The position numbers and the translations under genes were made by a program. A DNA stretch of 64,000 nucleotides from NCBI GenBank assembly GCA_021432655.1, contig MU271335.1:1-64000 (forward strand), written 5' to 3'. The notes beneath the pieces are model-generated. The model saw nothing but the letters and a program-made list of their open reading frames with translations, was not told the origin of the DNA and did not search any database. The DNA comes from Atractiella rhizophila. Its lineage: Eukaryota. Of the stretch, positions 1,343-61,900 are shown piece after piece (the stretch's first letter is position 1; every line of letters begins with the position of its first letter).

Positions 1343-1676
1343 ACTATAGCTTCTAATGGAGAAAGGGTAACTCTGGTTATAAGTCCAACATCCACGCATA
1401 CGTTTTCCGAATGAGCCACCCTACCACTTGCTCTTCGCTTTGAGCAAAGATAAGTTGTAGCGCCACGTGGTACATAGGAGGAAGTAAACCTTCCCTCTTG
1501 ACCTGCCATACTCCCGTCCCAATGACCTCAGAGAACTTCCTAGGTATGAGAGGTTTCACGAGAGAATGTCGCAAAGGCTAAGTCAAATAAAGTGCTTGCT
1601 AGGACGCGAGTATGTCTGCGCTGAAAGGAGAGATAGTCTTTGATGCGCCTGTTGGTATGAAAGCTTCTACCGTATC
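1343..1676. CDS. RBA50: RBA50/RPAP1 C-terminal segment, read as complement left to right
   Basis: Complement translates DIEDYLFPIETNIQVVGAYAKGLLGGMVNEKRNSFLFNIAVHHVSSFIWKG...ILSKMA*, the continuation of ...RDIRLSVQDAVLE at 4882. Confidence 0.85.
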
Positions 1677-1704
1677 TGAAGGTACATTGTTGTTCCACTG
1701 GTTT

Positions 1705-4074
1705 AGTGAAGGAGGGGAAGGAGAAGAGTGGAAGGAGGAAGTCGACAAGGGTTGGGAGGTAGGTTGGTTGGAGTTTGGAAAGTCAGCTCTTAGGAAGACG
1801 GAAGGGGGAGCGAGCGAGCGCGTATGAAGAGGCCAGGTGAAGAAGGTAGAGGAGTTTATACTTGTTTTCGAAAAGTCGCATGAGCGGCTGTCTTCTCCGC
1901 ACCTTGGGCCAGCGAACCGGCGCCTTCCCCTGCTGCTCCAGCTCCTCACCTGGCGGTCTTCTCACGTGCTCACCATAATCCGGTCGCCGGACACCATCAA
2001 CTACCAAACATAGTTACAAACCCCGCTTATCTCTCCCTTTACGCTTGGTACTTAAGATGCTACAATTATGGTTTTACAAGTAGTTGGTAACATGAGTTTG
2101 GGTGACTGCTAGAGGGTTTGTCGAGGTAGTCGAGAAGTTGAGACTCTAACTGCACTTTGAGGTGTAACAGGAATGCTCTGGTCAACACTCAAGCTGAACT
2201 TTCATTTTTCTTATTTCGCTTGGAGCTCGAGGTCAAGTGCTTGCTCGTTGGCATCGAGAAGGTGAGCAAAGAACAGGAGGAGTGGGGAGTGCCTTGGTCG
2301 GTACTTCTCAAAGTGCAGGAAGGGGGCGAGACGTGAAGCTAGGTTCTTGAGAGAGTCTCGGTTGTGAACGCAGGATACTAGAAAGAGACCGGATGTTTGA
2401 CGTGATAGTCCGAGCGGTGGGATCTTCGATCATCTGCTACCCCCTTGTCTTCTGCATGGATTTGACTCGTTGCCTCTCGTGCTAAGAGACGGACCCGACG
2501 CGATATAGGTTGGAAGGGTTAGATTATCATAGTGTTCCGCCTTTCTGCTGAGATCGGGAGAAAGGGGTGGGGAAAGGGAGGGAAAGGAGAGGGAAGGAGG
2601 AGCCGGATTGGGAGTAGGAGGAGCTTCCTGACCCGCTGTCAAAGGGGAAGAGAGACATGTGCAGCGAAAGGGAGACGTCTCCTCCCCCTCCCCCTACTGG
2701 GAGCCTTTAACTCTTTCAGCAAAAAAATCCACCTCCTCTCCGCCCCCATTGCCGCTGCTCCCCTGACCTTCCACACCCGCCCACTTCCCCCGCTCACACA
2801 GCCTCCTCCTACAGCTCCACTGGCCGCCAGGTCCTCCTCAAGCGGGTCTACATTAGCCGCTTGCTCTCCTGCACTCTCATCTCCTCCCTCTTCTCCACCA
2901 TTATATAGCTGAAACCCCACGCCCTACTGTGGGCAGCTTAGTACCAACAAGACATCGTACTCTTCAACCACTCTTACTCTACACCTCCCCTCCTTGCCTT
3001 GCGTGCTCTACCACCCTATCACTTGCATGCGCGGCTATCCGTGCCTCCCTCGGTCCTTAGACTGCTACCCTTTTCACTTACGTATCGGGTAGCACAGACA
3101 GGAGCGTGCAGTTGTCCTTCTTTTCCCCTCCATCCTCGTTGCTTGGCTACATGTGCAGCCCATACTCGTTGCTTTCTCGTAGTTCCCGGTAGGTGTACGA
3201 GGGATACGAAACAGGTTCGTAGCATTTGGAGCCGGTTGAGAATAGAAGCTGGGTAAAGGAGCAGCAATTAGAGCGTTTTACATAAGAAGAGAGCACTAGT
3301 CTTTCACCTTATAGCTTGGAGCAGAGGAGGAGAATCGGAAACGAAAGTGTTGCTTACTCCCTATTCCTCTGCATGCTCCTGCAACCTATCTTAAAGTCGA
3401 AACCTTCGCCACAGCGGTCACATCTGCTGTGTCACCTCTCTGCCCCTTCTTCTCTCATTCTGAGGTTCCCGTCGGGTCTCGTGCGCAAGAGGAGGAGGCG
3501 GTCGCAAGGACAACAAGGTATGACAATCTGGTAGAAATAAATAAGCTTGTCCACAGAGCCGTCCTAGAAGTCCCACTCCCCCACTGATAGTCAGCTATAC
3601 CTTAGTTTAGTTCGCTAACTCCTCCTCCTCCTCGAGAAGTTGGAGAGGAGGTGAGTCACAAGTAAGCTGTTACGTTGCAAAACCATAACACACTCTTATC
3701 TATTACTTACGAGTACGTACACACGTGTTCACTCCAATCGTTCTTTAACTCCTACTCGACGTAGTGCTCGTACCCTATTGTCTGCACCTCTTGTTACTAG
3801 GTGAAACGACGTCTCACAGTTATGCTGAATATATTTCCCCTGTAACAACGACTTAAACTACGCAACTGCTCACTGTCTTCAGAGAGAATATCGGACCTTT
3901 CCGACTCTTATCGTTTTCTTTCTGCATGCGTATTCCTACGTTCTCAGGTTGGTGCAGGTGGGGAAGGTTAGGGTTGAGGAAGGAGGCGGCGGGTGAAGCG
4001 TGCGAGTAGGTGCGGGAGTCGCGAAAGTTACGGGGGTCTGTTTGGTCGCTTCGGTGCTCTTCGTCGTCGTGGTA
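1705..4074. CDS. ALG11: ALG11 alpha-1,2-mannosyltransferase (GT4), multi-exon, read right to left without complementing
   Basis: Reverse reading: MVLLLLVASLVCLGALK (signal anchor)...GLLHPYA|NAGGGGERVLWAA...VVYTGD...WANSSWTAGH...VVFPPCDT...LSVAQFR|PEKDH...GLSTMVDEHFGINIVEFM|AAGLIPLVHSSGGPLLDLVVP...TGF...RKGRK*. Canonical GT-AG introns in this reading. Confidence 0.95.
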
Positions 4075-4292
4075 CGTAGGTAGGTGACTGTGACTGTGAC
4101 TTTAGAGTTTTAAGTTGACGGTGCACTGTGTGCTGTGCTAGACAGGCGCTAGTTTTGTTGCTGCAGAAGTGGTTTTAACTCACTTCATCGTTCCCTTAGT
4201 CGCTCGCTAATCACCCTGTTCGTCCTTATATTCAACGTCACCGTCACTTTATAGTTCTTCAGTCCACTCTAAATCGTCCCTTGTAGTGTCGT

Positions 4293-4792
4293 TACCCGTT
4301 CGCGCGGACCAGGAGGCTGGAGAGATGCAGCACCGGGAGCGGTCGCGGCAGACGTAGGGAGGCGTGGAGGGTAGGGAGGAGGCGAAGTCGGCGGTGGCGG
4401 GGTAAGCGATTGCTGGAGTGGGTGAGGCGGCAGGGGCACGCGTGGTAGGTGGTAGGTGTAGGTGCGGCGAGGTTGAGGTTGCGGTCGAGGGTGAGGTTGA
4501 GGTTGAGGTTGCGCTCAACCGCGCTCGCTTCGTCTTCGTTACTAAGTGTCCTATGGTCGCCACCACCTCTCCGCCCGTCGTAGCAGCAGTCCCTCCTACA
4601 CTGCCTCCACGTCCCTCGGGACTTCACCAACTTCGGACCGTACCGGGCACCTGTTCCCTCTCCTTACCGTCGCCCCTACCCGCTCCTGGAGAAGTCGGGG
4701 CGTGTTTGAGCTCTCCAACAAACTTGGAGGCAGCGGCTTTGAAGTACGCTGACGTAGGGGCCTACGTAGACATAGCCCTGTCTTCCTCTCTC
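4293..4792. CDS. NUD1/Cdc11-like gene, exon 1, read as complement left to right
   Basis: Complement: MGKRAWSSDLSTSWPSP...GMGEDLFS/PHKLERLFEPPSPK (needs removal of one base in the G4 run at 4697-4700), then a GTGCGT donor whose phase matches the acceptor at 1305. Confidence 0.6.
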
Positions 4793-4879
4793 CACGCAGG
4801 AAGAAAGAAGGAAGTACTGAAGAAGCGAAGATAGCGTACAGAAAAGTAAAGTAAACGTAAAAGCAAATTAACCCAGTAG

Positions 4880-51153: not shown

Positions 51154-53033
51154 TTACTTCACTTTCTTCTTTACTGTCTGTTTCCGCTCTTTCTTTTTCT
51201 CCCGCCGCTCCCGTCGGTCTTGCTTCACCCCCTGCTTCCGTTCCTGAAACTGCGTCAGCTGCTGTTGGGTACATCAAAGAAGACTCACTCGCTTAGCATC
51301 CTTGTCCTCGAATCTTTTGCCTTTCGGCGTTTTCTCCAAATCGTCGTCACCTTGCTCACTCTCCTGCTCACCGTCTCCTTCTGAATCTGAAGTCATGGCC
51401 TCCTCTCCGACTGGCACCGTTTCTTCAGGCCTGTTTTCACCCACCAACCTTGTTACTCCAGCGTATATCAGCTGATCCTTCCCGCCGGTTAGCAAAATGT
51501 CGATATCACGTTCAGCATCCACGACGTCTTTGAGCTGAGACGGGATGTAGGATTGTTGGAACACGGCTTCATCGATGTGATTGCGCTCGTCCTGATGAGA
51601 ATTCCGCAGCGAATGAATGCTCTCCAATATGGCAGCAACGCTTTCTTTGCCGTCGACGCCATGCGCGCTGGGTTGAGTGACATAGGCGAATGTCTGAATC
51701 ACGCCTAGCGTATTCACACCTCGTTTGAAGAAAAAGTCGTCAACATTCTTGATATCAGATCTAAGAAAGTCGAATGCATGGGGGTGGTCATGTTCCACCG
51801 ATTGAGACACATCAATAACAAATAGATGAGACTGGTGATACCTTGCTCATTCTGTCAAATCATCCAAATCAAAATTTTGGAGAACTTACAAGATATTGTA
51901 TTCGCTCAAATCTGCATGTATCAATCTGCATTCGTGATAGAGCTGTCGGAGCAGTACCAAAGCTTCAATGTAGAGTTCTTCCGCCTTTGCATCGGGAATA
52001 TCTGCATCTTTCAGGCGTGGAGAAGCTCTATCGTGGATCAGAGTCAGTCAGTTACTGCCTGTACTTGACAGAGAGATCTCACCGCCAGGTGCCATCGCCA
52101 AGAAAGTCCATGACGAGAACGTTATTCCTGACCTCTACAGGTTCTGGGACCCGCATGCCAGCTTTGTGAATTCGTTTCAAATTTCGCATCTCCTTCTCCG
52201 CCCAAACTCGAACCATTTTCCGTGGATTACTCCTGGAGTATCCATTTCGATATCTGAATTCTCCCGTAACGTATCGATCCCGGTCCTTGAATTGGAGGAT
52301 CGAGGTTTTGTACACCTTTACCGCAAAATGTCTCTGCTGCAGGCTGGATTCTGGCGGTGCGGGTCCCACGGCGTGATACACGTTGGCTTCTTTTCCTGTG
52401 CTGACGCATCCATCGACTCGATCAAAAAGACCCCTTCCGATCATTTTGAACAGAATTAGCCTTGTACGGGGGTCGAGAACCTGCTCAGAGGTCGCGCGAT
52501 CGGATTTGTCCTTTAGAACGCTTCGCACTTCGCTGCCCCCTTTCCTCGTCGATAAGGACGAAACTGAAAAGATAGGACCTAAATTGAGGTTGGAAGTGAA
52601 TCGTGAGCCAAGAGTAGCGAGTTGATCCTCCACTTTAGAAGAATGGACATTTTGCACCTTAGCTTTTATTGACTCTGGTGCCTGGCGGGAGGCTTGGTTG
52701 AAAGCAGGTACTATTGCCGCTTGTGGCGATTTAACTTTTCTTTTCGTTCGTTGCTGACTGGCATCGATGTATTGGCGCATTCTGTTGTATCTTTTTGTCA
52801 GATCTACATTTACATTGCTTCAGGTGCCGTTCAAATCAAGTTTGAGATAACATACCTCCTGAGACATTTTCCCAGTCTGCTTGGTCCACATCCAAGTCAC
52901 TCTCCGAAGACGACGAGGATGGTGGTAGATTGGTGGTGCGCTGCCAGTATTCAGATGGATCGTCGAAATCATCAGTGAATACGGGAGGTGGTTTCGGCGC
53001 GGCAAACACAAATTCTGGGCGTGGTTCAGACAT
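51154..53033 (-). CDS. RIO1: Rio1 atypical protein kinase
   Basis: [111 protein letters not shown]. Confidence 0.97.
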
Positions 53034-53236
53034 CTTATTACTGGACCTCCTTGAGTTAGCTATCAGAGCTACCTTACACCTTGATCGAAGCTTGATGATC
53101 TTTTGTCGTTGGAATGAGAAATTTGATCGGAAGTCGGCGTTAATGGCGTTTATGTAACTTCTACTTCCACGCCACACCAGATACATTGCTGTCCTTCTCC
53201 TTCTGTTCGCACCGAGATCGTTCCCTGTCAGTCAGA

Positions 53237-53796
53237 ATGGTAGTCAAACGAAAACACGTCTCGTCGACGTCGCTACCTGCCACTGGAACAATCGAGGATA
53301 CCTTTTTGGACACCCAAGACCAAGAGGAGCTTGTGAGGCAATTAAGAAAAGATAATACGCGGCTGCAACGCCTCCAGGAACTCTTTTGCGCCATTATTCA
53401 AGGCCTTTTGATTATTTGTTGCCTGCTGTGTGTAATTTCACATGTCCAGATCGGAACACCCTTAATGTATTCGTTACTAGCTTCAGCGAGGAGTATTCTC
53501 GATTCGTCGTCATCCTTCAAGTCATTAGCCTTGGTCTAGCTTTGCGTGAAAATCGAGAAGCCAGGATCAGTCAACTTACTTCTACGAATGATTTGGATTT
53601 TCTCGCCCAAGGAATATTAACGCTGCCAGGCGTCTATGTTGCGGCGAGCTCGTACCAAGAGTCTTTATCACAAATATTCTGGGCAAGCCCTGCCGTTACA
53701 GTTGCAATACGCTATTATCTTCGTTGTAATTGGTTGCAGACGAACCTCGCAATTGACGGTCTTGAGAAAATGCAGTATCGATTTAAGAAAGTCTAA
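53237..53796 (+). CDS. Small hypothetical membrane protein (2 exons)
   Basis: FLDTQDQEELVRQLRKDN followed by hydrophobic segments, ending IDGLEKMQYRFKKV*. Confidence 0.6.
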
Positions 53797-53860
53797 ATGG
53801 CCACGGTCTTGTGTATGATCAATTACAACAACAGTTCTAATGTATAACATTTCTCCACTG

Positions 53861-54496
53861 CTACACGCGACAATTCGACTGTACCAATTCTGAGCTTCGT
53901 ACCTTGCTAATAAGATGAAAACATGGCGCACAATGTTAAGAATGAGTACATCCGACGCTCCGATCGCCTGTAGATCGTCCATCGTCTTCGCCATCGTCTC
54001 TCGCTCCACCATAGAACTAACTGCGACCCATTCGGAGTCATCGAGAGGAGAGATAGTTGCAGCTCTACGACCAGGAGTAATTTTTGTCGCTTCTGAAATC
54101 TTCGATCTCAAAATGTTATAGTTGCACAGGACGTATTTCTTGGCAGCAATCACTCCCGCTATGCGAGATGATATTAAGTCCATCAACTGCCAATTTTTCG
54201 AGTTTGGCTTCGCTGATCGAATAAGGACTGCCTGGCTGGAAAGAATGGTTTCGATTGGCTTGAGCCCAGCAGCTCTCATCGTTTCTCCGGATTCTTTTAA
54301 GGTGCACAAGTTAGCTTGTCATTTTAAGCGAGCTATGACTTGCCAACAAGGTCAACAATGCCATCAGCTAGTCCCAACGCGCAAGCTGCCTCTACGCTTC
54401 CGCCTACATACTCTATCCTGGTCGTTTTCTTCGGTTCTGTCTTCTTATCAAGCTCTCCAAAATATTGCGCAGCCAAAACCTCAAAGCTAGTCACAA
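53861..54496 (-). CDS. HIS1: ATP phosphoribosyltransferase, C-terminal half
   Basis: VTSFEVLAAQYF...YVGGSVEAACALGLADGIVDLV|ESGETMRAAGL...RIAGVIAAKKYVLCNYN...ITPGRRAATISPL...GASDVLILNI|SNCRV*. Confidence 0.96.
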
Positions 54497-54555
54497 NNNN
54501 NNNNNNNNNNNNNNNNNNNNNNNNNNNNNNNNNNNNNNNNNNNNNNNNNNNNNNN
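54497..54555. other. Assembly gap (N-run) inside HIS1
   Basis: N-run directly left of mirror block 2. Confidence 1.
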
Positions 54556-55312
54556 GCGGTGTTGAAACCTCCTGCGGGTCGACGGACTAGAGGTTCTTCG
54601 TGACGTCTGTAGAGGTCAAGGGTAAGTTTGACGCTTCGAACGAGGTTGGCTTCTAGTTTAAGCTGTTTACCAGTTGGAGGATGGAAGGCCCAGCTAGCCT
54701 CTGCGAAACCTTTAGAAGTCTTGTCAACGGTCCTGGTTTTTATGACAGAAAGTTTATGGATGCAAACTTCTGGAACTCTTAGAGCGAGCCCATTGCCTTC
54801 CTACACAACTAGAGAGCAAAAGCCTTGATAAACAGGAACGAGTTCGTGGGCAGGGAATGTGGTTTGGATAAGAGGAGCTAGTAAAACAAAGAACCGACGC
54901 CCAGTAGTTTGTCCTTCCTAGTGATTTAGACTTCGCTACCGACCTCTTGAGGCGCCGTCCTCTCTCATACGTTCTTTAAGTTCTGATGTAGTTGCGGACA
55001 CTTCGGCTAGGATGGGTAGCGGAGGCGTTATGTCTCAAAGACGCTTTGTTACTAGGCGACCATGAAACGCTTATAAAGGTAGCGGACTACTACTATATGG
55101 CCACCGAGTCGAAGTCCGAGCTTCAGGTCAAGGGTCTGCCTCTTGAACGGCTTGCCGACCGAGTCTAGCCTGTTAGAGTCGAACTAACCAAAGACTTCTC
55201 TTCTTAGTCGCTAGTCGGTCCGAGAGCGCACTTCCTACTACTTTCACTATCGTTGCTAAGACAATGCGACCTAGCAGCAGCAGTCCAGGCCTTTCACGTA
55301 TCCTCGCATATT
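54556..55312. CDS. SUV3: SUV3 C-terminal segment, read as complement left to right
   Basis: Stop-free for about 250 codons: ATTLEDAQLPDLQEALQTSPVPIQTAKLAPT...LFVLAQAPV...MIYRWLSFRLEVQFPD...HRSV*; continues ...QIAGRAGRYGMGKAKGMV. Confidence 0.92.
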
Positions 55313-55326
55313 ATGTAACGTAATTG

Positions 55327-56326
55327 AATAACACGAACTTAGTAAGCGTTAAGTAACTAGGTGTATATAAATGAACTATAGACTATATTTCAGGACTTGG
55401 TCTGCGCGACTCAACGCACGACCCTTTTGGGAGAAGAACGCCTTTCCATAACGCTGGTGCTCAAGCTTATTTACGCTGTCAGGAGAAGGAAACAGGTGAG
55501 CATTCAAACTGTTCAAAGTTAACGTACCTCCACTTACGAATGACCATTGCAGACCCCTCTCTCGTCCCCTTCCACCTCTATGAACCTTTCCTCGCTCCTT
55601 CTACTATCGCATATTCGTCCGCTGCCGTTTTGTGGTGGAAACTGAGGGGCCGACGCACACATGCTGCAGCTCCTCTCATCTTAGTGTCTTTTCTTCCCGA
55701 GTGTACTGTCGCCTCCGTTAACGAGATACCAAGCGTACAGGACTATAGGGCATTTCCAGTTTTCACTAATAGACGACCGCACCAGTCTTCTCGTATTTTT
55801 CTAGTTATTGTTTGACACAGTTAACGGGTAAAGCACCACTTTCCGCACTACCGAAGTTCGTGGCACAGGACCAGGGTGGTCCACACTCCCAATAGTCCGT
55901 TTAGTGATGTATTCTGCAGTTGCAGGTTTTCAGGTGACTCTTGATCGCCACCTGACTGACTAACAGGTCTTACTGTGTTACTCTAAGGACCTACGGCTTT
56001 AACCGCGTCCTCACGAAGTAAAGGAGTCTCGCCTCTACCGGGTTAGGCAGAAACAACGGACGTTGGTACCATTTAAACCCTGGTTCACATCCATCGAGTC
56101 TGGTAAACTCTCCGTCTCTTACACAACGACCTGTCTCGGCAACTCTAACTCCTAACACCCACTCTTCTTGTCGCGGAGTAGCAGTCGATCTGCACTTAGT
56201 CATACTAAGGTCACGACCACTATATAAGCGTGCTACCCGATGATGCATCTCATGTGCCGAGGGTCCAAGTTTACGATTTCGTTCAACTTCGTTCTCCTCT
56301 CATTCTTAATCGAACTACGACCAGTA
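55327..56326. CDS. GPI12: GlcNAc-PI de-N-acetylase (Gpi12/PIG-L), multi-exon, read right to left without complementing
   Basis: MTSIKLILTLLLLQLALA...VVAH|PDDEALFFSPTI...LCLSN|GNKDGLGHLRSEEM...IITFDLYGISGHANHRAI...QHATQRVWFRTLYQISSKYMWINEL..*. Confidence 0.95.
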
Positions 56327-56513
56327 AAATAAGCCCTGCAACTCACTAAAAGATGAGTTTGTTTACAAAAGCCTTAGTAGTATTGAAAAACGAAACGTAG
56401 TAAGGAAGGGCTATCGACGAAGATGATGGAAATGGTCTAGGTGCTTGAGAGTAAGAGCAATCAAAATATCTAAAATGTCCACCGCTGTTTAGTCTGCGTT
56501 GCTCCGCACTCGA

Positions 56514-56948
56514 TACTGCAAATGGTTCAGGTGAAACCTTCTGTCCGATGACAAGCGTTAGGGATTCTTTCCACTTACTAAAATAGAAACCATGCCCCGT
56601 TCCCAACTCAAAAGTTTTCCCTCCGACATGCTTTTCACGGAACTCGAAGAGCGTCCATTCAGGAGCGGCAAGGACGACGAGGACTACGAGTATCTTAGTG
56701 TCCTCGCCTATAGGTTAAGTCAGCGCGTTTAGCGGAACTACAAACGGATCACGCATTAGTACGGTAGCGGGACAAGCAGAGAAAGTACGAAACGACACCC
56801 GACCAAAAATGTGCACTACGATCGCAAAAGGAAGGACGACGTCTGTAGGGAGCAAAGCATCCACTTCCCTTACAGCTAGATCCATATTGTCCAGTTCTGT
56901 ACCAACGTCTTCGTCGTCACCCGAGTAACTAACTCCTTTAAGAAGGAA
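56514..56948. CDS. HIS1: HIS1 N-terminal exons, read as complement left to right
   Basis: MTFTKSTLEDRLLFAIPKK|GRLYEKCLELLA|GADIQFSRANRLDVCLVRNHAIAL|VFLPAADIPRFVGEGNVDLGITGQDMVAE...IEEILP, with three GT-AG introns. Confidence 0.96.
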
Positions 56949-58535
56949 ACCATCCCCTTCGCTTTGCCCATACCGTATCTCCCGGCTCTGCCAGCAATCT
57001 GTCCAATGAGGGAGCTCGGTAGCTTATGCATTGTCCTACCGCCCGCCGTCTCGCCATATTTGTAGAGAGATTCAAAGATTATTCGCTTGATTTTTCTATC
57101 CCAAAATGGTCAAGGCGACAAATGCAATGGCGGCACAGAAACCTACAAATTGAGGCCCATTCCAATCGCATCGCTCCCAACCAGCACATCTACTTCTCCC
57201 TGGTTGAACATCTGCGCCTGGGAGGAGCGAACTTCCGGAGGCAAGGAACCATAAATCACAGCAACCTTCAAAGCCGTTTCTCGTTGAATACGTTGCTGCA
57301 GAGCGAAAATTCTTGCTCTAGAAAAGGCCACAAGGCAGTCACCGGTGCTTAGGTCGACGAGTTTGTTACCAAGACCCTTTTGGGCGACAGCCAGCGGTGT
57401 CAGTCGTTCGTAACTATGCACAGTCAATTTGTCCCCTGTTACCTCACATAGCTTCCGTATAAGCTCTACTGCCCGTAATTCACCACAGAGATGGATTTCC
57501 TTCGCAGCCAAAGACATGAACGCTGCTGTCCAAGCAACCCCTCGATTGACATCGTCAATCATTTGGATTTCGTCAATCACGGCAACATCATACGTTGAAC
57601 TAGCTGTCGACTGAAGCATTTCGACCGTACAGGCAGTCAAAGGAGCGTTATCTGCGACAATCTTGACCACCTCTCCTGTTACTAAGTTGCAGGTCCTACT
57701 GATAGGCTTTCCGTCCTTGTCAACAATCCCTCCCTCATTGAATCTGGTGAAGATTTCGTGGGCCAGGAGACGAAGTGGGCCGGCGTAGACTCCTGTTTGA
57801 GCATTCGCGAGAGCGAGCAGAGCATTATAGGTTTTGCCTGAATTTGTCGGTCCCACGTGTAGGTGTACGTGACGTTGTGTTTTTCTCGATCCACGGTAAA
57901 GATCAGCTGGCGAGGTGAGGTCCGCTATCTCCCTCAAACGCTGGATACGCTCCCTGAGGCTGGCAGGCAGCTTTTGTTCAACAGTCCATTGAAAAAAACG
58001 AGACGCGACTGCTCGGGTGATGATCTCTCGTGGTGGATCGTCGAGCTCAAGGTCCCATCTAAGCAAATTAAAACCGGAATAACAGATTAAAGGCTTATGC
58101 GCACTCTCTCAGTATCTCTTGCTCGGTTTTGGAGGATTCATCCAGTGTCTTCAGCACTTCTGACCCAAATGACGCCGCCAAACGAGTCCCGAATCCTTGC
58201 GAACCGTCTTCTTGATTCGATATGCCCACCAAACGTAAAAGTCTATGGACATTGGGGGCGAGCTGCGCGAACTTGGCGACTTCTTGACGGAGGAAAGGCA
58301 AAGGAGAGTGGGAGACTTGAGTCTCTGCAGACTGTGTTGCAACAGTCCGCCGTGGAGAAGCATTCGTCTCTTTTCTTCTTGATCTTGATCTTCGTTGCGA
58401 CGCGGGGGGACGACCGACAAGGGTCACAGGGAATCGAGCAGCATTGGGAAGTTTAGTGCTGAGGTTGAGCGTGCTGGCGTTTCTGACGGCTGGGACGTAA
58501 AGGATTTTAGACGTGCTGGCGACGTTGGTCCTCAT
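56949..58535 (-). CDS. SUV3: Mitochondrial RNA helicase Suv3 (N-terminal and helicase core)
   Basis: HVGPTNSGKTYNAL, YAGPLRLLAHEIF, ACTVEM, VIDEIQMI, YERLTPL, GDCLVAFSR, IYGSLPPEVR, SDAIGMGLNL, QIAGRAGR; R/S/T-rich presequence. Confidence 0.96.
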
Positions 58536-58998
58536 TGTTTTGAAATCGCTTCTGCTCTCAGTTTCATCAGCCCTTTTATCGCTGGCTGGCTACGAGCTGG
58601 GCTACAAGCTGAGATGGAAATGTTCCTCACAAAAAGTTGGTCTTATTAGTTTCAAACTACAACACCAGTCCATCTCTGACGTTTGCACCGCGGTTTCCAT
58701 CAGGGTTTCTATTCGCTTGACATTGTTGCGCTGCAGAGATATAAGAACGGTTTAATGTAAAGAGGGAACTTCCATTGTACCTTTCATTGTGAGTTGTCAG
58801 TTGACGCTCACGAGATGATCGATTGGATGGCTGGCTGTAAACAATACGTGCCAGATTACCATTTACCATTCGTGTATGCTCATGCCCTTTTTGTATCTGC
58901 GGGAAGTAGTGCACATCTCTTGGCGAAGCACTCTCAGTCTACGCACGTTACACTTTGGCTGAACAGTGTATTGACCCCTCGTTTATCAGATCTACGCA

Positions 58999-61900
58999 AT
59001 GTCCAGTCAGCCAGTGAAACCTACTCGCCCACCGCCCCCATCGCCGTCCCTTGTTTCGGACTTCAAGTCAAGCGCTGCCGAAAAGACCAAAGCGCCATCT
59101 ATAGCGGATCCCGATCCCAACGCGCTCACCCCACTTAGGGCACACTATCTCAAGCGAGAACTGATCACTCTGCAAATTCAACGAGAAATATCCACTGTAG
59201 CTACTTCAGAAGCCCTATTTCTGTTTGGGTCGCCATTTCTCCCAAAATCAAGATTCTTGCCCAATGGCCAACCAAATCCTAATCCTCCACAGCTTTCAGC
59301 AGAAGAGAAACAAAGGGAGAGAGAGCAGCAAGCCGATCTTCCACTGATCAGATTTATCTTCCATCAGTTTGTGGTCACCTTTCCATTTCTCAAGAATTGT
59401 GGCCCAACTTTCTGGTCGCACAAAGTTCAGCCCTTCATTCACTCCTTCTTCGCGCGCAACATCTCGAGCAGCGAAGATAGAGAAGAGGCAACCAAGCGTC
59501 GCAGGCTGTTCGGAAAGGTGGAAAAGCATCTGGGCTTGATAGTTTCTGCGGCTATCAAAGTCAATGATAACAATGGAGCAGAAGAAGTCGTCAGGGTCAC
59601 TAGTACATCTCACCCATTTGGAGCTCGGCATCAAGCGTCGACAGGGCCTGTTTACGAAACGGAGAGTCTGTCGATCAATGTCGGAGCGCTTTCCTCTAAC
59701 GCTTCCGAAAGCGAGCAGAGTTTTAGTGTCAATGTTGTTACCGTGCGCAACATTGTGACAAAGGGAAGAGTTCGCAACAAACATCATGAAGAATTTATTA
59801 TCCGCACGAAGAGCAAGGATGGAGAGGTTTACGTCAGTCGACGATATGGGGATTTTCTCAAATTGTCAGAAGAGGTGCGCCTCCTGCTAATGAGCCTAGG
59901 ATTCCCTGATCGTAGTGTTAATGTTATAGCTACGAAGCGAATATGCAGAAGCAGACATCCGACCTCCGCCTCCGAAAGACCGCCGCTCTGTCGAAGTTCG
60001 ATCTCAGTCGACTGGTCCTTCCCCTCGCAGATCAGAGTTTCCGACATCTACATCCGAGGCGTTTGAGGATTCTCAATATCTGATGCCAGGCGATATCAGT
60101 AGCTCTCCACCAAGCACAAGTGCCTTCTCCTCCAATGCCTCAACACACCATCATCACGACAAACACCTGCCGAATCTCGCTCGAGAAAGGAACAGGCTCA
60201 CTCTCCGTGCATATCTCCACTCCTTATTGGCGAATGATGCACTAGCTTCGAGCGAGACTATGAGATCGTTTCTATTGGAAAGCCCTACCACTTTGACGGA
60301 TTCTGAACTTCGTGATGTGGCAGTTAGAGAAGAGATGGATCGCATACGAGAGGAAGAAACAAGGCAGTTTCAGGAAGAGGTCGAGATTCGTGTGAAAGAG
60401 CTCGAGTCTAGCTTGCGCCAGTTTCGCGAGGACCTGGTCAAATCAGGTTTGTGCAACTGGCAGCAGCGGGTCGTTATCTGATGTATCCCGCTAGACGGCT
60501 TGACAGAGGTTTTTGCCACCATTAGGCGGACGCCAAGGGTTGAGGACTTACCCTTGCAGTATAGAAAGGTTTTGGAATGGGGTCGTATATCGTAACTCCA
60601 TCATCCTTCTATATGAGACCTGACACTTGACTCAGCCTTGCATCGACGCTGTACCAACTATTTCTTGGGTCTGACGATTCATCTTCGACATTTAATCAGC
60701 TGAAGCGGATTCATGGCATGATCCCGTACTTACTACTTCGTGGAGTTCTTAAAATCTCCAACCCCGTCGCCATGATTCGTGCGGCTCTGGACCTCTTTCT
60801 TGCAAGACCTTTCGGACAGACGAGTTTGTTGCAACGTATCTTCAGCAGCACGTTGACCGAAGATATTCGGGAACTCAGGGCGGACATTGAAAAGGTGGCA
60901 GCCAAAGTTCGAGATGACCGCTTGGTCCAGAAAGTTCAGAATTTTGTGAATGCTCCCAAGGAGATCCAAGACGTTTACCGTCTCGATGCCGGTAGGACGT
61001 TTCGGAAATTCATGTTTTGACCTGAACGTGACTCTAGAGATGGAAAAAATCGACATCATTCACGCCATCCTGCGAGCACCAGAGGATCCTGTATTAGATC
61101 GCGCCGCTTTCATCCGAGTACACCGAGCGAGTGGTGCGTACGAAGAGTATAAGAAGATTAGGGATGCTCTCGCGAATCCGGACGACGATGAGGGTCCCGA
61201 TAATGAAGATGCCTGGCTTTTTGAAGACTTACATGTCATTCTGCGAATGGCGACTCGTTTAAGGGACAAGGAGCAAATGATCGCCCTCATATTTGAGGTT
61301 TGTGACCCTTTTTTCCAAAAGCGCGTGATCTAAAGCTTAGAGTAGGGATCTACATCGGAGCTGCTGAAGGACATTATCACAATGTTTTACGAGCCACTTG
61401 CAAAGGTTTACAAGGCTGCCAACATTTCAGATTGCATCTATGACCTCCAGATGTTTGTCAATGACCTGATCAAAACGGTGGAAGAGGCCGAGAACGCCAG
61501 TGTTTCCGATCCCAGGAAGGTTGTTCAACAGTTTATCGATTTAATTTCTCGACATTTACAAGCTGGGTATAATTTTGTCCACCAGGTGCACGCAAAAGGA
61601 GAAGATCTGTTCGACAACTTAATGGCATGGATACAGCTTTTCATCGATTTCGTGCGCGATGGACTTCCTGACAAGGTTACATTGGAATGGCTGCTCCCAC
61701 ACGGCGGCGAGGAGAGGGCCAACGTCATCGCAGAAGTTGACCAGATTATCGATTATCATAGGAAACTCAAGCTTTTGCGAGCCAAGAAGCTAGCTCGCGG
61801 CGAGAGGCATGCCGCGGACCGCAATCAAGACGAAACTGCCTTTGTCTCTGGAGTTTTGAGCAATTTGCACATTGGAGCAATTGCTGGCGACGTCGAGGAC

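Follow-up and report, generated by a model that had tools for sequence, protein, structure and literature searches.

A block of 2396 bases in a stretch of Atractiella rhizophila DNA is written backwards. In the window that we analyzed, a stretch of 64,000 nucleotides (GenBank assembly GCA_021432655.1, contig MU271335.1, positions 1 to 64,000 of the forward strand), the letters of positions 54556-56951 run 3' to 5' without having been complemented. We consider it highly probable (about 0.93) that this block is real A. rhizophila DNA that was reversed, and not complemented, in the public scaffold beside an unclosed gap. The true order of genes across the block is HIS1 on the minus strand, GPI12 on the plus strand, and SUV3 on the minus strand. 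Genes in the block are legible, and in frame with the flanks, after plain reversal only. Plain reversal without complementing is impossible in DNA, given the polarity of its strands; since the genes are in addition absent from both strands of the deposited text, the block is an artefact and not biology. A sequence-only reading, made from the letters of the window with no database searches, had proposed both the mirror reversal and this gene order. The reversal is confirmed by 3 lines of evidence that agree: the mirrored letters of contigs, a score of reading direction, and the restoration of genes. The order is borne out by tblastn, by spliced gene models, and by reading through the borders of the block.

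Contigs from 3 public runs of the same organism (X1, X2, and X3) were compared with positions 52500-59400. They match both flanks of the block, with most pieces at least 99% alike, and diverge from the window at 54496 and at 56952. A run of 59 Ns (54497-54555) abuts the left edge of the block. In X1 and X2, the contigs fit positions 52500-54496 and again from 56952 onward, with loose ends at 56952: one record carries 1775 letters unlike the window beyond 54496, and a second carries 700 such letters before 56952. In X3, a spliced contig (record 17) connects 54496 with 56952 through 2038 other letters. The sampled words of 54556-59400 that are present in the 3 runs amount to fractions of 0.49, 0.48, and 0.34, and the correctly written share of that stretch is 0.51. 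The mirror of positions 54556-54585 reproduces the letters that stand just before 56952 in X1 and X2, exact at 30 of 30 positions at this one end of the block; the other loose end falls under the N-run, and the match between contigs and mirror covers 30 letters. The mirrored window contains this 30-letter string once, and the forward, reverse-complement, and complement readings lack it. The runs may include the sample from which the assembly was made, such that the contigs are independent of the scaffold text and not of the organism. Cover is absent at 54579-56888 in all runs, which is no evidence taken alone; our argument is based on the joint and on the loose ends. A fourth data set, a soil metatranscriptome with a small share (X4), yielded 5 short pieces on the flanks and is uninformative on the block itself.

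These contigs settle the limits of the block. The sequence-only reading had placed its left edge at 54556, which stands, and its right border at 56948/56949, which the contigs move 3 bases further, to 56951/56952. As a side observation on the left flank, the window has A at 52953, 53556, and 53619 where X1, X2, and X3 have G, reflecting differences between strains or alleles or base errors in the record; additional sites differ from some of the runs only.

The letters of the block also carry their own record of direction. We scored the block as written against the block reversed, using a fifth-order Markov model fitted to the remainder of the window, with both strands pooled. The score of the block is -91.5; 22 control tiles of the same 2396 bases average +63.6 (sd 16.3, minimum 27.4), which places the block at a z of -9.5. 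Asymmetries of dinucleotides are inverted: the CA/AC ratio is 1.26 in the background vs 0.74 in the block, and the TA/AT ratio is 0.63 vs 1.67. A cumulative six-mer score sets change-points at 54483 and 56947, the left one just before the N-run and the right one at most 5 bases from the border. As deposited, the block holds no long open reading frames, and none of its 9 frames (58-146 codons) has a Pfam match at E <= 0.01. Reading it backwards uncovers a 251-codon frame along with several shorter ones whose motifs are familiar. The 8 introns that we modelled in the block are all GT..AG, with lengths of 43-53 nt; introns of the flanks, as removed in the contigs, measure 46-53 nt. The signal is far beyond chance. 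The features of the region are collected below.

Table. Genes and gap at the mirrored block, in deposited positions of the window; restored positions are those obtained once 54556-56951 is un-reversed
Feature	Deposited position	Strand	How it is written and where it falls
HIS1 (ATP phosphoribosyltransferase), C-terminal part	53932..54496	-	Correct as written; followed on the left by a short last exon
59-N gap inside HIS1	54497..54555		About 28 codons absent (P0002 residues 99-126)
SUV3, C-terminal 252 codons and stop	54556..55312		Complement letters, left to right; restored 56951..56195, minus strand
PIG-L/GPI12-like gene, 6 exons, 253 aa	55327..56326		Written letters, right to left; restored 55181..56180, plus strand
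HIS1, N-terminal 97 codons, 4 exon pieces	56514..56951		Complement letters, left to right; restored 54993..54556, minus strand
SUV3 helicase core	56952..58108	-	Written correctly; more 5' exons lie to the right

HIS1 is cut at the left end of the block. With a Rhodotorula HIS1 (P0002) as query, tblastn places residues 127-298 at 54494..53932, in correctly written text, and the introns at 54294-54343 and 53879-53931 are removed in X3. The first 30 letters of the X1 and X2 contigs past 54496 are absent from the window in all 4 readings, and one frame of the reverse complement of the contig letters past that position continues HIS1 against P0002. The N-terminal part emerges from the far end of the block. 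Its Met lies at restored position 54993 (deposited 56514), 3 GT..AG introns of 48, 47, and 51 nt separate its exons, and its product matches residues 8-98 of P0002 at 81% identity (E 6.9e-54); tblastn finds residues 6-98 at 54981-54557 once the block is un-reversed. With residues 1-100 of each of 78 full-length-like HIS1 homologues as tblastn queries, 78 of 78 match the restored text (median E 4.9e-28) and 0 of 78 match the deposited text, on either strand. The start at 56514 predicted for the N-terminal exons is therefore retained, and their end shifts with the border, from 56948 to 56951. The claim that restored HIS1 would lack only the part under the N-run is upheld, with the restored N-terminus reaching residue 98 of P0002 and the correctly written part resuming at residue 127.

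SUV3 is cut at the right border. Its core includes an open reading frame at 57143-58108, and an intron at 57096-57146 is removed in X3. The exon that begins at 57094 crosses the border in frame and runs for 299 codons to a stop at restored position 56195. At the border it reads ...GRAGRYGMGKAKG-I-ATTLEDAQ..., and the in-frame read-through to the stop includes ...GRYGMGKAKGIATTLEDAQ... An in-frame read-through had been predicted and is found; the predicted junction GKAKGM-V-ATTLED is replaced by GKAKG-I-ATTLED, since the right border moves to 56951/56952. Both versions are in frame. The coordinates given earlier for the SUV3 C-terminus, 54556-55312, agree with ours. By blastp, the restored last exon matches residues 470-741 of a homologue (P0131) at 27% identity (E 6.8e-27). 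This segment of P0131 includes the domains Suv3_C_1 (PF18147, 599-641) and SUV3_C (PF12513, 695-741), and we assign both to the restored protein by alignment to the domains of P0131. The tblastn match of P0131 covers residues 137-510 in the deposited text; with un-reversal it continues without a break and covers 137-741. Among the SUV3 homologues, 31 of 76 C-termini match the restored text and 0 of 76 the deposited text (tblastn, E <= 1e-5).

Between these 2 genes, the restored text holds a complete gene that resembles PIG-L/GPI12. Its 5 introns, chosen by eye, are all GT..AG (46, 44, 53, 43, and 52 nt). We searched it with a profile HMM built from 42 bacterial proteins that carry PF02585 above the Pfam cut-off (42 of 45 candidates). 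In hmmsearch against a database of 1962 open reading frames, the spliced model matches hmm positions 7-156 with E 9.4e-13 (45.4 bits); the seeds had been selected by a pattern coding for AHPDDE, such that the agreement at that motif is in part built in, unlike the rest of the alignment. Open reading frames of the deposited window give no comparable match to this HMM. Single exons of the restored gene score weakly (E 0.039, 0.16, and 9), and the spliced model alone is significant. The motifs announced by the sequence-only reading are there with one amendment: GISGHANH is directly readable, and HPDDE is present only once intron 1 is spliced, which completes AHPDDE across a split P codon. We take AHPDDE and the HxxH near position 130 to be the metal-binding and catalytic motifs of PIG-L. 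Its hydrophobic N-terminal stretch and its C-terminal motifs suggest that the restored gene would be the GPI12 orthologue; orthology to yeast GPI12 and human PIG-L is presumed here from C-terminal motifs and from the membrane anchor. In 80 metagenome loci with relatives of SUV3 (up to 54% identity), the middle of the block gave no tblastx match, whichever way it was oriented.

The exon models may be incomplete by one intron. The 2038 letters of X3 are about 58 fewer than the models predict, so an extra intron may exist in the block; a candidate sixth intron, in frame, lies in the last GPI12 exon at restored 55965-56009 or 55965-56018. Two side observations concern the crowding of genes here. 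Once un-reversed, the stop codons of GPI12 and SUV3 are 14 bases apart (restored 56180 and 56195). The spliced X3 contig is 6456 letters long, spans 52500-58526 with genes on both strands, and has both CT..AC and GT..AG introns removed; since it covers genes of both strands, neighboring transcripts overlap or were merged. In the left flank, a 246-codon frame on the minus strand (52079-52819) is presumably RIO-type kinase-like.

The window contains a sister block with the same fault, as had been claimed: positions 1343-4879 (or 1344-4878, the letter at both ends being identical) are mirrored too, directly right of a run of 8 Ns. This block removes the C-terminus of an RPAP1-like gene (8144-4879, minus strand). 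The open reading frame of this gene gave no protein match of near length, and a search among longer proteins gave public entries that do match. One is P0271, an intact RPAP1-like protein of 1202 aa from another contig of the same species. Its residues 4-1092 fall on 8144-4879; its residues 1093-1202 match, at 100% identity, only the mirror of 1344-1673; and un-reversing 1343-4879 gives its residues 1087-1100 exactly. Another is P0272, a partial protein of 1838 aa from this contig, which is a translation of the backwards text (e.g., 98.7% identity to deposited 2923-2696). P0272 is chimeric and continues into the next gene, at 1311-13. On a separate point, P0271 is 98% identical to the RPAP1-like protein of the window and is encoded on a 164516-base contig of the same public assembly, which suggests haplotigs or a duplication as the source of the second copy. 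For HIS1 and SUV3, the matches of the homologue searches included no second copy from the species.

The public gene models appear to be built on reversed text. For the sister block this is direct, in the form of P0272. For the block at HIS1 and SUV3, truncated models and consecutive accessions point to the same reversal in the public record. The HisG model (P0001, KAH8923012.1) has 121 aa, takes an internal Met as its start, and contains the HisG_C domain only. The SUV3 model (P0121, KAH8923013.1) is a partial protein of 313 aa with DEXQc_Suv3 and Helicase_C only, and it ends 6 codons before the block. The two accessions are consecutive on one 87612-base contig; thus, no gene model stands between HIS1 and SUV3. 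The damage to annotation foreseen by the sequence-only reading is accordingly found in the public proteome, as the HisG fragment, the partial SUV3, and the empty interval. Because the block is unreadable on both strands, annotation lost GPI12 and kept the HisG_C fragment and the helicase core of SUV3.

How might such a block arise? We propose a scaffolding or gap-patching step that would have performed half of a reverse-complement. In one variant, an extension leftward from the end of a contig would have been stored outward-first and never turned round; in the other, a patch from the minus strand would have been complemented and not reversed. The N-run that is left over would be the remainder of the estimated gap. 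In both blocks the first base follows directly on an N-run and the last lies within otherwise continuous sequence, a shared geometry that is expected from half a reverse-complement at the edge of a gap. Both blocks (2 of 2) lie to the right of their gap, and this does not separate the 2 variants. It is a tentative idea, and one we hold somewhat doubtful, that both blocks trace back to a systematic fault in a single scaffolding or gap-patching step. If it were true, many kilobase-sized blocks adjacent to gaps would be backwards, in this genome and in others from the same pipeline, with hidden genes, false gene losses, and translations of backwards DNA in protein databases.

Other explanations place the fault elsewhere. 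The public record might be correct at this block, with the reversal, and perhaps the N-run, introduced after deposit. We hold this improbable: the public SUV3 model stops 6 codons short of the block and lacks its C-terminal domains, and SUV3 has no gap within it, so a correct record would hardly yield such a truncation; the accession of the SUV3 model directly follows that of the HIS1 model; and the reversed text of the sister block is itself translated in a public protein. A true chromosomal inversion or rearrangement that broke HIS1 and SUV3 in the strain would explain why 2 genes are cut at the ends of the block. An inversion, however, needs a reverse complement, and tblastn on both strands of the deposited text gave 0 of 78 and 0 of 76 matches; the contigs of the organism continue straight into the mirrored letters, and the polarity of DNA excludes a plain reversal. 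A true inversion is refuted by the mirror letters of the contigs together with the absence of tblastn matches on either strand, and we leave it a vanishingly small chance.

Equally slight is the chance that the block is foreign or junk DNA, be it a contaminant or a degenerate repeat, whose matches after reversal arose by accident. The block as written does have the look of such DNA, with no Pfam match in any of 9 open reading frames and no cover in any run. Against this, 3 genes stand in syntenic order, the reading frame carries on into both flanks, and the modelled introns are canonical in 8 of 8 cases; the match scores of HIS1 (E 6.9e-54 for the N-terminus), SUV3 (6.8e-27 for the C-terminus), and PIG-L (9.4e-13) refute it. 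We retain the reading of the block as the organism's own DNA, reversed at the edge of a gap.

The locus offers no new biology: its 3 genes, HIS1, GPI12, and SUV3, are ordinary housekeeping genes, and their arrangement is ordinary too. What matters is that a plain reversal escapes the usual checks: neither strand can be read, and nothing maps there. As a consequence, the public proteome holds a HisG fragment without its catalytic domain, a SUV3 without its C-terminal domains, and a GPI12 locus without a model. To infer from the record a histidine auxotrophy, a loss of GPI-anchor synthesis, or gene content in general would mislead. A cheap score of direction locates such blocks to within a few bases, and whole assemblies could be screened in this manner. 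The artefact is worth reporting to curators, including the chimeric model of 1838 aa. Among the literature matches listed for plain reversal as an error type, none dealt with assembly, as judged by titles and the opening of abstracts, which is not proof that the error is undescribed; by title, none of the matches listed was a genome paper on A. rhizophila.

The 3 restored genes can be set beside the families to which they belong. In the long form of HisG (PF01634 and PF08029), the restored N-terminus is collinear with the correctly written C-terminal part: PF01634 spans residues 61-223 of P0002, the restored part aligns with 8-98, and the correct part aligns with 127-298. The difference from the family is that about 28 residues lie under the N-run and that the public model is HisG_C only. 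In the SUV3 mitochondrial RNA helicase (PF22527, PF00271, PF18147, and PF12513), the core is correct here and un-reversal regains the C-terminal part; this part has only 27% identity to P0131, and only 31 of 76 C-termini reach E <= 1e-5. In PIG-L/GPI12 (GlcNAc-PI de-N-acetylase, PF02585), here compared through its bacterial members only, the restored model shares AHPDDE, the GxxGHxxH stretch, and a hydrophobic stretch at the N-terminus.

The block itself has its nearest counterpart in the false inversions that occur at scaffold gaps of draft assemblies. There, likewise, a block in the wrong sense lies beside a gap, genes are cut at its ends, and gene models are truncated or chimeric. In a false inversion, however, the block is reverse-complemented, and it can still be read from the opposite strand. 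The block described here is reversed in order only, and neither strand codes; as a result, it stays invisible to ordinary similarity searches, to read mapping, and to gene finders.
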